In this document: piece by piece, positions 4,320 through 33,360 of the stretch | Numbering within the stretch: position 1 is the stretch's first letter | How the letters are laid out: each line of letters begins with the position of its first letter | IMG/VR virus record: IMGVR_UViG_3300012352_000355 | Span: 1 to 64,000 of that record | DNA: 64,000 bases | DNA from: a virus | Direction: 5' to 3' (one strand) | Made by a program: the position numbers and the translations under genes | The notes under the pieces: model-generated | What the model saw: the letters and a program-made list of their open reading frames with translations, nothing else | The model's database searches: none | Told to the model about the DNA's origin: nothing

Positions 4320-4712
4320 TTAAATTTCGTCTTTCCAATCAATTGCTTTTACTATCTCTGCTTCTTCAATGAAAGTCTTAAGATAGTTTTTACCTACTCT
4401 CATAGCACCAAGAACAATGTCTTGTACTACTTCGTAGTTTTGAGGTACAGCTACTTCTTTAACGAAAGTAACAGTTTGATCAATAGTAGAGCGTTCTCTT
4501 AAAGACCTTAAGTAGGTCTTTTCATCCATCATAGTCTTAACTGTGAGGTACTTGAACATTCTTCTGATTTCTCTTTCTTGAATCTTCTCTAATTTGTCTA
4601 GATTAGACCATTGTCTACCTTTTAACTTGAATGAGGTAAACATTTCTTCTGCAGGCTTAACAGAGTAAACCTTTTCTGCTACCGTAGTAGACTTACTGAT
4701 TCTTTTTCGCAT
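4320..4712 (-). CDS. hypothetical protein
   Basis: 130-aa ORF, A-rich leader. Confidence 0.75.
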   Translation of the reverse strand: MRKRISKSTTVAEKVYSVKPAEEMFTSFKLKGRQWSNLDKLEKIQEREIRRMFKYLTVKTMMDEKTYLRSLRERSTIDQTVTFVKEVAVPQNYEVVQDIVLGAMRVGKNYLKTFIEEAEIVKAIDWKDEI

Positions 4713-4756: not shown

Positions 4757-4786
4757 AAAAAGGGGAGCTTACACTCTCCCCTTTTT
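4757..4786. terminator. intrinsic terminator (bidirectional)
   Basis: AAAAAGGGGAG-loop-CTCCCCTTTTT. Confidence 0.7.
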
Positions 4787-4874
4787 ACCCTAATATGATA
4801 TGGACTTGCCTTTGTACAGAATTGAGCAAAACTGTAGTGTAAGATCGGCAATATTTTTTGCTTAACTATAAGCT

Positions 4875-5008
4875 TGGTAGCACAGGTAGGACTTGCACCT
4901 ACAAGGTGTTACTTAGGAAGGTATAACTCCTAACACCAGTGATTATGAAAAATAAAAACAATTGTACAATATACCTTTTACTGCGGCTTCTGCTTTCGCC
5001 ACTGTGCT
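4875..5008 (-). ncRNA. tRNA-like RNA with expanded anticodon/variable region (134 nt)
   Basis: Acceptor AGCACAG/CTGTGCT + ACCA, D-arm-like TGGCGAAAGCAGAAGCCGC, T-arm GTAGG-TGCAAGT-CCTAC, extra hairpin GGTGTTA..TAACACC. Confidence 0.7.
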
Positions 5009-5012
5009 ATTT

Positions 5013-5139
5013 AAAAGAAAAGCTTCGGGTCTTACAGGGTTACTGATTGAGTGCAATGAGTGACGCCTACCTACTATTAACCCTTTTTCGGTATTTAAAA
5101 CACTCTACCTCTCAATTACAGCTTCACTACTTTTCTTTT
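5013..5139 (-). ncRNA. putative pseudoknotted structured RNA between two tRNA-like elements
   Basis: 10-bp closing stem AAAAGAAAAG/CTTTTCTTTT; crossing helices ATTGAG/CTCAAT and AGGGTTA/TAACCCT. Confidence 0.55.
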
Positions 5140-5140
5140 G

Positions 5141-5261
5141 TAGTCAGGACAGGATTTGCACCTGTATTTAAACGGAGGTGTTTTCACACTGCGTTTAATT
5201 TCTAACTGTGTTTTTACATACAGTAGTTGTAGAAGCGTCTATACTTTTCCGCCACCTGACT
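5141..5261 (-). ncRNA. tRNA-like RNA with expanded anticodon and variable arms
   Basis: Acceptor AGTCAGG/CCTGACT, D-arm TGGCGGAAAAGTATAGACGC, T-arm ACAGG-TGCAAAT-CCTGT; no canonical 7-nt anticodon loop. Confidence 0.7.
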
Positions 5262-5266
5262 ATAAA

Positions 5267-5311
5267 AAAAGTCCCACGAGCAGATCTTACGGTATGCAGG
5301 TGGGAACTTTT
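5267..5311 (-). other. hairpin at the 5' end of the RNA cassette
   Basis: AAAAGTTCCCAC..GCA..CGTAAGA..TGC..GTGGGACTTTTTT. Confidence 0.5.
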
Positions 5312-5345
5312 GGTCTTAGAAATGGAATCCTAAGAGAGTTTAATG

Positions 5346-5375
5346 CAAAGATAATAAATTACTTCAAAGCATCAA
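5346..5375 (-). promoter_or_regulatory. Bacteroidota sigma70-type promoter driving the RNA cassette
   Basis: TTG-N19-TATCTTTG on the minus strand. Confidence 0.7.
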
Positions 5376-5754
5376 CTATTGCACAGAACAGTCTGTCTTT
5401 CTTTTGTTGAAACTCTGGCAACTCATTGAATGGAACGATACAAGGATGAGTCTTCTTCTCAGCGTCCTTCACCTCACCGTACACCCAACCATCATCGGTT
5501 TTGTCTTTCATCCAAGCGTTGTGTTGAGCATCTTCCTTAGCATCTGGGTTTTCTATACGAAACTTAACTCCACTAACAGCTGATTGTATTTGCCATTGTT
5601 CTGCTTCAAGCCAGTCTTTTTGAGAATGATCTCCATCTGACTCACACCATGCTTTGTTTGCTTGGTGGCATACTTTAGCAATCCATCCAATTTTGTTTTG
5701 CTGGCGTAGAGCATCCCACTCTTCTTGAGTTCCTGTAAATGGTGCTGTTGTCAT
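5359..5754 (-). CDS. RyR-repeat domain protein
   Basis: HNAWMKDK..DGWVYGEVKDAEKKTHPCIVPFNELPEFQQKKD signature. Confidence 0.88.
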   Translation of the reverse strand: MTTAPFTGTQEEWDALRQQNKIGWIAKVCHQANKAWCESDGDHSQKDWLEAEQWQIQSAVSGVKFRIENPDAKEDAQHNAWMKDKTDDGWVYGEVKDAEKKTHPCIVPFNELPEFQQKKDRLFCAIVDALK

Positions 5755-7267: not shown

Positions 7268-7464
7268 AAAACAAACTCTCTTGTACGCTCACCGTACTTA
7301 TAGATTTTACTGAACATAGTTTACTGTTCACCTGTTGTAGTGCACTACAGAGCAGGGTCCATCACATAACACTTCGAGGCATGTATCTTATTGGGTAATT
7401 ACTCCCATAAGTCGAAGATGGTCTTTCAACGGTGCTAATCCGTCCTATGTAAGAGAGTTTGTTT
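7268..7464 (-). ncRNA. putative structured RNA directly 3' of tRNA-Glu
   Basis: 14-15-bp closing stem AAAACAAACTCTCTT/AAGAGAGTTTGTTTT; nested CACCGT/ACGGTG, CCATC/GATGG, TTCGA/TCGAA, CTTAT..ATAAG, TGAACA..TGTTCA helices. Confidence 0.6.
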
Positions 7465-7539
7465 TGGTAGCCCCTGAGTGAATCGAACACATCTTTAACA
7501 GGATGAAATCCTGCTGTCCTACCAATAGACGAAAGGGCC
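7465..7539 (-). tRNA. tRNA-Glu(TTC), slightly non-canonical
   Basis: GGCCCTT/AGGGGCT acceptor + ACCA, GTCTATTGGTAGGAC D-arm, GCAGG-ATTTCAT-CCTGT anticodon arm, GTTCGATT T-loop with a bulged T-stem. Confidence 0.8.
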
Positions 7540-30322: not shown

Positions 30323-30793
30323 ATGAAAGGACTTCTAGTAAGTCTTTTTCTAATTCTCTCTATCCCCTGTTCTTCTCAAATCAATGTGATGAAGGCAGGG
30401 GATGGTTGGGATTTAAAGGTAGACTCGGCCTTAGCATTAATTGCTCAAACTGATGTCAACGCTTATACTAGAGTAATAGATGTCTGCCAAGTAATAGACT
30501 TCTGGATTAGTCCCTATTCCTCTAATACAATCTCCCAAGATGGTGGAACTATATTTATCGCTACAGGAGACATAAAAACGAATTCACTCAATAACCTAGC
30601 TTGTGTTATTGTACATGAAAGTCTTCACTTATACTACTTGTTACATCCAGTAGAACAGTCACAGGACGAAGAAGAACTTAAGTGTTATATCTACGAGTTA
30701 GACTTTATAAAAAAACTACCAACCCCAGAGCCTTGGTTACAGGCAAATGCAATTGAACAATTACATAAATTAACTAAAACAAAAACAAAATGA
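30323..30793 (+). CDS. secreted zincin-like (HExxH) protein
   Basis: Signal peptide ..CSS|Q; VIVHESLH followed by EE..CY..E. Confidence 0.7.
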   Translation: MKGLLVSLFLILSIPCSSQINVMKAGDGWDLKVDSALALIAQTDVNAYTRVIDVCQVIDFWISPYSSNTISQDGGTIFIATGDIKTNSLNNLACVIVHESLHLYYLLHPVEQSQDEEELKCYIYELDFIKKLPTPEPWLQANAIEQLHKLTKTKTK

Positions 30794-32688: not shown

Positions 32689-33035
32689 ACATTAAAAAAG
32701 CACTTGGTTTTAGCCAAGCAGAACCAGTAGTAGTAGATCCTAAGAATAGGTTCTATTATATGCTACAACAAATGCAAGCCAATCGTTGGAAAATTACAGC
32801 TATCGTATTGGGCTTGTTTACTCTAATCATTGTCGGAATCAACGCAGCAGTATTCATGGGAGCTGCTATTGGTGAAGACTGGAAAGAAATGTTGCTTATC
32901 CTTTTAGGTGCATTTGTAGGTAATCTGAACAAAGTAGTAGACTACTGGTTTAACTCAGAAGATCGTGACAAGATGTTGATCCAAAAAGTGGATGAGGAAG
33001 ACGGTGAATCATTATCAAACACAACTAATCCATAA
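32685..33035 (+). CDS. two-TM membrane protein
   Basis: Two TMs, LLGAFVGNLNKVVDYWF. Confidence 0.75.
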   Translation: MNIKKALGFSQAEPVVVDPKNRFYYMLQQMQANRWKITAIVLGLFTLIIVGINAAVFMGAAIGEDWKEMLLILLGAFVGNLNKVVDYWFNSEDRDKMLIQKVDEEDGESLSNTTNP

Positions 33036-33039
33036 TATC

Positions 33040-33360
33040 ATGTCAGAAGAACAAGAAGAAAGCGTAATGTCGGCTACTAAGAAAGCTATCATTGGCGCAG
33101 TCACCACTGCTGTAACTGCAGGAGGTGCATGGTTCGCTACTCACTTTGGTGGTGGCGAAGAACCTAAAGAAGAAGCTAAAACAGAACAGAGTGCTGCTCC
33201 TGTTATTAACTTGAATCTAGAGAACAACAACACTAACCAGCAGAAACAATCTTCAGGTGGAACTACTACTATCATCAAAGAAAGAACAGTAGAGAAACCT
33301 GCAGCTCAACCTGCTGCTCCTGCAACCAAACCACAAGAGGAGGAATCTGATCCATGGTAA
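33040..33360 (+). CDS. membrane-anchored low-complexity protein
   Basis: Start MSEEQ at 33040; AIIGAVTTAVTAGGAWF TM; Q/P/E-rich tail ending DPW. Confidence 0.75.
   Translation: MSEEQEESVMSATKKAIIGAVTTAVTAGGAWFATHFGGGEEPKEEAKTEQSAAPVINLNLENNNTNQQKQSSGGTTTIIKERTVEKPAAQPAAPATKPQEEESDPW

Follow-up and report, generated by a model that had tools for sequence, protein, structure and literature searches.

This locus raises the question of what fills a 645-bp minus-strand gap without genes in the genome of an uncultured phage, between a RyR-domain gene (5359-5754) and an open reading frame (ORF) of 130 amino acids (4320-4712). The window analyzed, 64,000 nucleotides (nt) in length, is the first 64 kb of the 111,405-bp IMG/VR virus record IMGVR_UViG_3300012352_000355, whose completeness is estimated at 94%; terminase, portal and major head genes are found in the phage genome. 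An initial annotation described the gap as a promoter-driven cassette in which two mimics of tRNA flank a structured RNA. All features of the array are on the minus strand, and coordinates are those of the window.

We assign a probability of roughly 0.65 to the reading in which 4757-5335 packs several portable non-coding RNA modules closely together within a phage tRNA island, as an array processed in the manner of tRNA. The order of the modules would be a terminator-like two-hairpin unit, a tRNA-like element (el1), a pseudoknotted RNA (the middle RNA), a second tRNA-like element (el2) with an encoded CCA, a 3' module and a terminator. The evidence consists of the folds and covariation of the modules, the loss of the decoding arm from the tRNA-like elements, the spread of the modules over unrelated contigs and the abutment of the pseudoknotted RNA to tRNAs or tRNA-like elements. 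For comparison, 46 loci were retrieved via the neighbouring RyR-domain protein; L-numbers denote related phage loci. R1, a model of the tRNA-like shells, and R2, a model of the middle RNA, were built in this analysis. Exact-word and pattern counts given as at least 119 or at least 120 IMG/VR contigs are lower bounds.

A conserved pseudoknotted RNA

The main new result is the middle RNA (5013-5139), which on the sequence comparisons is a conserved family of pseudoknotted phage RNAs without a match in Rfam 15. Its architecture consists of a closing stem, P1 (5129-5137 paired with 5015-5023), a 3-bp stem, P2 (CUG/CAG), a variable arm, P3-P5, and a pseudoknot between GGGUUA (5078-5083) and UAACCC (5037-5042). 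The window copy possesses all the features of the family, namely P1, the AGUnAAG joiner, P2 CUG/CAG, the GGGUU/AACCC pseudoknot and the YGAAAGACCC tail. It scores 158 bits with R2 in its own genome and is itself one of the seeds of that model. Divergent members retain P1, the AGUnAAG joiner, P2, GAAAAAGGGUU and the CAGnAACCCyGAAAGACCC tail, and have the P3-P4 arm replaced.

The initial annotation recognized a closed structured RNA at this place and named covariation across phage homologs as a check. The relatives do have a conserved, covarying structure. Among 77 distinct middle RNAs, 95% of cells are paired, compared with 42-51% when the partners are slid, and 30 of the 36 pairs vary on both sides, counts that come from sequences chosen or aligned by structure and that a model-fitted alignment inflates somewhat. 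A pseudoknot pair is seen as AU, UA and CG. Folded as a single sequence, 5013-5139 is no better than shuffled sequence (z = -1.24).

The family is widespread in phage metagenomes. An internal 19-mer occurs in 27 IMG/VR contigs, and a pattern made of the pseudoknot strands and the 3' tail occurs in at least 120. A 21-mer has zero matches in 185,579 bacterial and archaeal genomes. Rfam 15 gives no match, including in a 416-nt search with E up to 10, and the best Rfam score around the middle RNA and hairpin 2 is that of IMES-2, 10.9 bits against a cut-off of 54.7. Among the proteins that neighbour the middle RNA, no family is present in more than 10 of 28 loci.

The ends of the middle RNA lie close to tRNAs. 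Eighty distinct copies have full flanks; 32 of these start 1-4 nt past the end of a tRNA called by ARAGORN, 51 end 3-8 nt ahead of a tRNA start, and 60 have a tRNA a few nt away from one or both of their ends. Several of the others adjoin shells or 10-bp minihelices ending in ACC. In the window, P1 begins 2-4 nt past the el1 discriminator and finishes 4-6 nt before el2. This tight abutment to tRNAs and tRNA-like ends supports release of the middle RNA by tRNA-type processing. Invariant joiners held in a covarying frame would be typical of aptamers or ribozymes, not of antisense RNAs. Complementarity to the phage's own genome does not rise above chance for the middle RNA, the el1 core, the el2 core or the 3' module.

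The 10-bp minihelices follow the middle RNA in L175, L176, L185 and L187 and follow hairpin 2 in L201, L207 and L264. They are of shell-like acceptor sequence, AGTCAAGATA...TATCTTGACT or AGTTAGGATA...TATCCTAACT, and are followed by ACC or GC. These tRNA minihelix-like elements occupy places held elsewhere by shells or tRNAs.

Two tRNA-like elements without a decoding arm

Element el1 (5141-5261), an anticodon-less RNA of the tRNA-Leu type, folds as a cloverleaf with a minimum free energy of -32.5 kcal/mol (z = -3.25). The acceptor stem, AGTCAGG/CCTGACT, has 7 bp (5255-5261 paired with 5142-5148), and the T arm is ACAGG-TGCAAAT-CCTGT. The D arm resembles that of bacterial tRNA-Leu, with GG absent from the D-loop. 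The discriminator, A5141, is followed by CAA, giving the trailer ACAA. A 67-nt core forms two extended hairpins where the anticodon and variable arms would be.

Element el2 (4875-5008) has a perfect 7-bp acceptor stem, AGCACAG/CTGTGCT (5002-5008 paired with 4879-4885), a D arm of the Leu type and a T arm of 5 bp, GTAGG-TGCAAGT-CCTAC. After the discriminator, A4878, the sequence itself encodes CCA (4875-4877). The anticodon and variable arms are replaced by an 80-nt core with an AU-rich stretch that is predicted to be mostly unpaired. When the 64-kb window was scanned on both strands for the shell pattern, el1 and el2 were the only perfect 7/5 shells; chance hits had 6 and 4 pairs.

The tRNA search programs respond to these elements weakly or not at all. 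A more permissive search of the phage's own genome with the Rfam tRNA family (RF00005) gives el1 29.7 bits against a gathering cut-off of 29; cmscan at the gathering cut-off does not list it, and a search of the short stretch gives a partial tRNA match of 15.6 bits. Element el2 is reported by no Rfam tRNA search of the window or the genome. ARAGORN misses both, whether introns are disallowed or allowed at 0-200 nt. Neither element has a 5-bp stem closing a 7-nt loop that carries U33 and has a purine in position 37. The loop of the el1 anticodon-arm region has 10 nt and starts with CA, and the sole 7-nt loop of el2, AAAGGUA, has A33 and U37. R1, for which both elements are seeds, scores el1 at 69 bits and el2 at 61 bits.

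The initial annotation is thus upheld in describing two tRNA-like elements, the second with ACCA, that keep the acceptor, Leu-type D arm and T arm, have long insertions in place of the anticodon arm and do not decode. Its unusual TGCAA T-loop is present in el1 and el2 and is not a property of the family, since the el1 orthologs at L004:522-644 and L015:3456-3597 carry the 8-nt T-loop TTCACAAT. A tertiary covariation, A18:G55, was considered as the cause of the TGCAA loops and was dropped on account of these orthologs. The D-loops of el1 and el2 are GAAAAGTATAGA and AAAGCAGAAGC and the T-loops TGCAAAT and TGCAAGT, so the canonical elbow (D-loop GG, T-loop TTCRA) is missing from both. The elbow would be either altered or relaxed, which weakens any claim that the elements are good substrates for enzymes that read it.

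The shell family in other phages

Both elements have the characters that define the shells: an acceptor AGTCAGG or a variant of it, a D arm starting with TGGCGRAA, a trailer of the NCAA type and a non-homologous core. Many loci next to RyR-domain genes possess the same shell around very different middles, with total lengths of 62-168 nt. In these relatives the acceptor strand leads into a D arm of the Leu type, though the first scan did not demand one, and tRNAs adjoin the shells. At least 120 IMG/VR contigs contain the exact shell 15-mer AGTCAGGTGGCGGAA, and nearly all of these copies are R1 matches above 50 bits. A shell 25-mer occurs on just 8 contigs of metagenome-assembled genomes, of mixed taxa and including 3 from Chitinophagaceae or Sediminibacterium; the shell is therefore not a host or other cellular tRNA gene. 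Among true tRNAs, R1 ranks the tRNA-Leu of T4 and T5 highest, at 51.8 and 44.6 bits.

The 131 distinct shells have a median length of 107 nt (range 61-202), and mini shells with almost no core occur. A canonical anticodon arm is present at the expected position in 3 of the 131 (2%), compared with 69 of 80 control class II tRNAs (86%) taken from the same contigs. Clustering by similarity divides the 129 cores into 114 groups, and the cores have no shared or enriched word or motif. In six clusters with a shared core, the whole elements are 84-100% identical and the 300-nt flanks on each side are unalignable, the lone exception being one downstream flank at 78%. To judge from these alignments, a shell and its core behave as a conserved, portable unit rather than as decaying DNA. 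Among 120 shell loci, no neighbouring protein family is present in more than 9.

The closest relatives of the two elements follow the same pattern. With its ortholog at L004:522-644, el1 shares about 97.5% identity; the gene region next to it aligns at about 80%, and the flanks have diverged. L015 shares 33 nt exactly with the window, comprising 5 leader bases and the first 28 nt of el1. The core of its ortholog is unrelated to the el1 core, and its RyR-domain gene is 77% identical. The acceptor sequence of el2 recurs in L003:2665-2789 and L011:3719-3820 with different cores.

The 3' ends of the shells resemble those of the phages' own tRNAs. Shell trailers have A73 in 85%, C74 in 95%, A or T at position 75 and A76 in 69%, and the commonest trailer is ACAA, as in el1. 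The same N-C-A/T-A, instead of CCA, is found in 443 canonical tRNAs called by ARAGORN on the same contigs (loci L003-L323). Since shell trailers mirror those of the true tRNAs, a shared 3' maturation pathway can be argued, by which shells would mature as the phages' tRNAs do. The trailers of the 443 tRNAs include ACAA in 160, ACTA in 55 and TCAA in 45, and C74 is kept in 98%.

Across the 131 shells, absence of the D-loop GG and departure of the T-loop from its canonical form go together (107/6/6/12, Fisher p = 8e-9), in a test whose copies are not phylogenetically independent and in which eight or more separate lineages were counted. Elements el1 and el2 belong to the minority without D-loop GG.

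Alternative explanations for the shells

The shells might be decoys that sequester a host factor, or an enzyme of a defence system, which acts on tRNA at the acceptor end or the elbow, for example CCA-modifying toxins, with the core irrelevant. Several features are in keeping with this: shell sequence is kept across phages with unrelated neighbour genes, the discriminator and the 3' trailer look like those of a tRNA, no partner protein encoded by the phages was found near the shells, and the mini versions have almost no core to display. A pure decoy, however, leaves unexplained why cores are 83-100% identical beside flanks that cannot be aligned, and the canonical elbow contacts are lost in el1 and el2. 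We regard the decoy explanation as unlikely. It suits anticodon nucleases, which the initial annotation had named, poorly, because el1 and el2 have no anticodon loop.

A rather small chance is given to the view that the shells serve only as processing punctuation, that is, as RNase P and RNase Z sites that free neighbours such as the middle RNA. The middle RNA adjoins tRNAs, shells or minihelices in most relatives, and el2 has its place taken in L175, L176, L185 and L187 by a simple minihelix of 10 bp with ACC. A minihelix alone would suffice for such a role, however, and the cores of shells are long, folded and conserved as units. Most shells moreover lie in arrays that lack the middle RNA, and punctuation is therefore not their sole role. 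The proposal of the initial annotation that such punctuation releases the middle RNA has comparative support from the association of this RNA with tRNAs; the restriction of shells to that function does not.

It is very improbable that the shells are tRNA genes with small introns that are spliced to working tRNAs. The precedent is the tRNA genes of Lak megaphages, which carry short inserts, termed 'enigmatic introns', whose removal restores a typed tRNA with an anticodon (PMC6784885), and the acceptor, D and T arms of el1 and el2 are intact. Splicing to canonical tRNAs is the outcome that the initial annotation had named as refuting its reading, and removal of the inserts here gives no canonical tRNA: ARAGORN finds nothing with introns of 0-200 nt, excision of one internal segment from a loop that starts with CA gives el1 no U33, and the single 7-nt loop of el2 has the wrong residues at positions 33 and 37. 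The inserts span both the anticodon and variable regions, and 128 of the 131 relatives likewise have no anticodon arm. There is no RtcB gene in the 94%-complete genome; a search of the genome for T4 Rnl1 also gave no match, but its control matched nowhere either.

That the shells are decaying, functionless pseudo-tRNAs is equally hard to credit: el1 and el2 have lost D-loop GG, their non-canonical T-loops differ between orthologs and the el2 core is a singleton, but every stem is still perfectly paired, el1 is far closer to its L004 ortholog than the adjacent gene region is, the 33 nt shared with L015 are 100% identical beside a RyR-domain gene at only 77%, and whole elements of the family are conserved between unalignable flanks.

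Hairpin unit, 3' module and transcription

Two hairpins lie 5' of el1. Hairpin 1 (5314-5335) has an 8-bp stem and a 6-nt loop and is the first half of a recurring two-hairpin unit, since hairpin 1, ACCRAAAGT and hairpin 2 recur together in L206, L218, L221, L222 and L256. Hairpin 2 (5264-5311; z = -3.87) has a variable outer stem around an invariant 18-nt apex (5280-5297), in which a GUAA tetraloop caps a stem whose mismatches are fixed, and a run of seven T at 5264-5270. The exact 18-mer is present in at least 119 IMG/VR contigs. The outer stem is at least 5 bp in 78 of 90 copies, covaries, and has 59 distinct 5' strands; a T-rich tail follows in 44 of the 90. At the gathering score or higher, Rfam reports no family for the hairpin-2 sites of 18 loci. 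In relatives, hairpin 2 lies directly 3' of the stop codon of the RyR-domain gene, and only 24 of 101 copies are near a tRNA.

From these features hairpin 2 is best read as a terminator-like module and not as a leader; its apex may be a protein-binding or antitermination site. The hairpin of the initial annotation is thus found, as one of two, and the second of them, with its seven T residues, has the character of a terminator. The promoter of the host type that was placed upstream is not supported at 5340-5375. This region holds a lone TAtcTTTG (5346-5353), in a stretch that is not conserved in relatives.

The hairpin-2 apex sequence GTAAGATC (5283-5290) is exactly complementary to GATCTTAC (4839-4846) in the 3' module, by chance or as a long-range contact. 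Conserved-looking structured stretches, GGGATCG...AAA..., lie directly 3' of the RyR-domain gene stop at L004:387-520, L015:3322-3450 and L042:1457-1530; they replace the hairpin unit of the window in these relatives. Phage transfer-messenger RNA (tmRNA) genes are present at L263:2704-3074 and L234:1387-1793 (Rfam 83 and 77 bits), in contigs with the GUAA hairpin module.

Downstream of el2, the 3' module (4787-4874) consists of a small hairpin and a nested stem-loop. Its 70 nt at 4787-4856 are 100% identical in L175:965-1034 and L182:1650-1719; both contigs carry the middle RNA, and both have a minihelix in the place of el2. The terminator that had been proposed to follow el2 was located at 4757-4786, about 88 nt past el2 and beyond this conserved module. 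It has an 11-bp stem with 5 G-C pairs followed by a T run, and ends the array.

The surrounding island contains two further RNAs. ARAGORN calls only one tRNA, a tRNA-Glu (7465-7539, minus strand), and at the gathering score Rfam reports only this tRNA and a freshwater-1 RNA (RF02979, 82.7 bits; 7305-7366, minus strand). Both lie in the same island, 2 kb upstream of the array. L015:3690-3842 matches the freshwater-1 stretch of the window and there lies about 90 nt after the el1 ortholog. Beyond the RyR-domain gene, the locus has no look-alike among isolated phages in GenBank.

Relation to known RNAs

As far as sequence comparison can tell, the nearest annotated relative of the shells is RNA1 of phage T5. 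RNA1 and RNA2 of T5 (AY543070, misc_RNA 30501-30644 and 32959-33083) are annotated as 'tRNA-like stable RNA with unknown functions' and, like el1 and el2, lie in a phage tRNA island. RNA1 shares with the shells the acceptor stem, the T arm and a D arm of the Leu type, and has a greatly enlarged anticodon arm and a variable arm. R1 scores it at 33.4 bits (E = 6e-6) and RNA2 at 20 bits. The acceptor and core sequences of RNA1 differ from those of the shells, and T5 infects E. coli. The stability of the T5 RNAs is taken from their annotation, whereas the shells are known here as sequence alone. The species 1 RNA of T4 (rnaC, AF158101 70908-71046), a small stable RNA of unassigned function encoded where the tRNA cluster of T4 ends, shares a tRNA-like T arm and 3' end with the shells. 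It differs in having no Leu-type D arm, and its R1 match is weak (19.6 bits, E = 0.011).

The candidates tmRNA, YrlA/Ro60 RNA and intron-bearing tRNA were each rejected on a defining property. In tmRNA, too, a large insert takes the place of the anticodon arm, and the acceptor and T domain are like those of a tRNA. Leucine identity, like alanine identity, is independent of the anticodon. The shells lack G3:U70, their third acceptor pair being U:A in el1 and C:G in el2. Neither element has a tag reading frame or a tmRNA match with ARAGORN -m or Rfam. YrlA RNA has its two ends in the Ro-binding stem and not, as a tRNA does, in the acceptor stem. YrlA, which acts with Ro60, resembles the shells in being non-coding and in imitating the elbow and acceptor of tRNA (PMC4201824). 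The ends of the shells, in contrast, sit in the acceptor stem, and there is no Rfam match. A TROVE/Ro60 gene (PF05731) is absent from the 94%-complete genome, in a search whose positive control was detected.

In the engineered tRNA scaffold of Ponchon and Dardel, a cargo RNA takes the place of the anticodon arm and is processed and stabilized like a tRNA (PMC3753655). That scaffold is man-made and the resemblance functional only; the shells are of the Leu type and have both the anticodon and variable arms replaced. GOLLD and ROOL are phage-encoded, structured and pseudoknotted RNAs of unassigned function, often found by tRNA islands (PMC12286853). They are 580-800 nt or more and form cages, whereas the middle RNA is about 105-135 nt. 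There is no sequence or Rfam relation to the middle RNA, and the genomic niche alone is common to them.

Expression and possible roles of the array

A single precursor transcript would cover the array, probably produced by read-through out of the RyR-domain gene that lies upstream; an unrecognized promoter is the alternative source. Host RNase P would cleave at the 5' end of each shell. Trimming past the discriminator by host RNase Z or exonucleases, followed by the CCA-adding enzyme, would complete the 3' end. These cuts would release the pseudoknotted RNA, leaving only a few extra bases on either end of it. The shells would persist as stable, tRNA-shaped, non-decoding RNAs, each displaying a folded core specific to its gene.

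Several observations weigh against this account of the array. Neither a sigma-70-like consensus nor a Bacteroidota-type TTTG...TAnnTTTG site was found between the RyR-domain gene and el1 or at 5340-5375, hence the assumption of read-through or of an unrecognized promoter. The seven-T run of hairpin 2 ends 2 nt before el1, which makes transcription into the array an assumption as well. The missing D-loop GG and odd T-loops of el1 and el2 are a further point, as the weakened elbow may make recognition by RNase P, RNase Z or leucyl-tRNA synthetase (LeuRS) less efficient. The fold of el2 has a z-score of only -1.2, and a 21-mer of its core has no second copy in IMG/VR; the el2 core, having no homolog, is therefore a fold without comparative support. 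The covariation counts of the middle RNA are subject to the inflation noted above.

Our best guess is that the shell is a frame for processing and stability, and that the cores and the pseudoknotted RNA are the active parts, acting on host factors and not with a phage partner. A bolder version is possible and is put forward tentatively: the shells might be a natural Leu-tRNA 'scaffold' with more than 100 functional cores, possibly chargeable, as LeuRS ignores the anticodon, and the middle RNA might be a new class of ligand-binding or catalytic pseudoknotted RNA that RNase P and RNase Z release from tRNA arrays.

The pseudoknotted RNA, with its conservation pattern like that of an aptamer or ribozyme, is a concrete new candidate for biochemistry. 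Both families are directly testable, as boundaries, structures and many natural variants are defined. The module families are absent from Rfam 15, and neither the shell family nor the middle-RNA family is described in the literature searched, yet each is present in at least about 120 contigs of uncultured phages. The shells would be the natural counterpart of the engineered tRNA scaffold, and they link to stable RNAs of T5 and T4 whose function has long been unassigned. Phage tRNA islands are usually read as helpers of codon usage; this locus indicates that they contain conserved, portable families of non-coding RNA as well.

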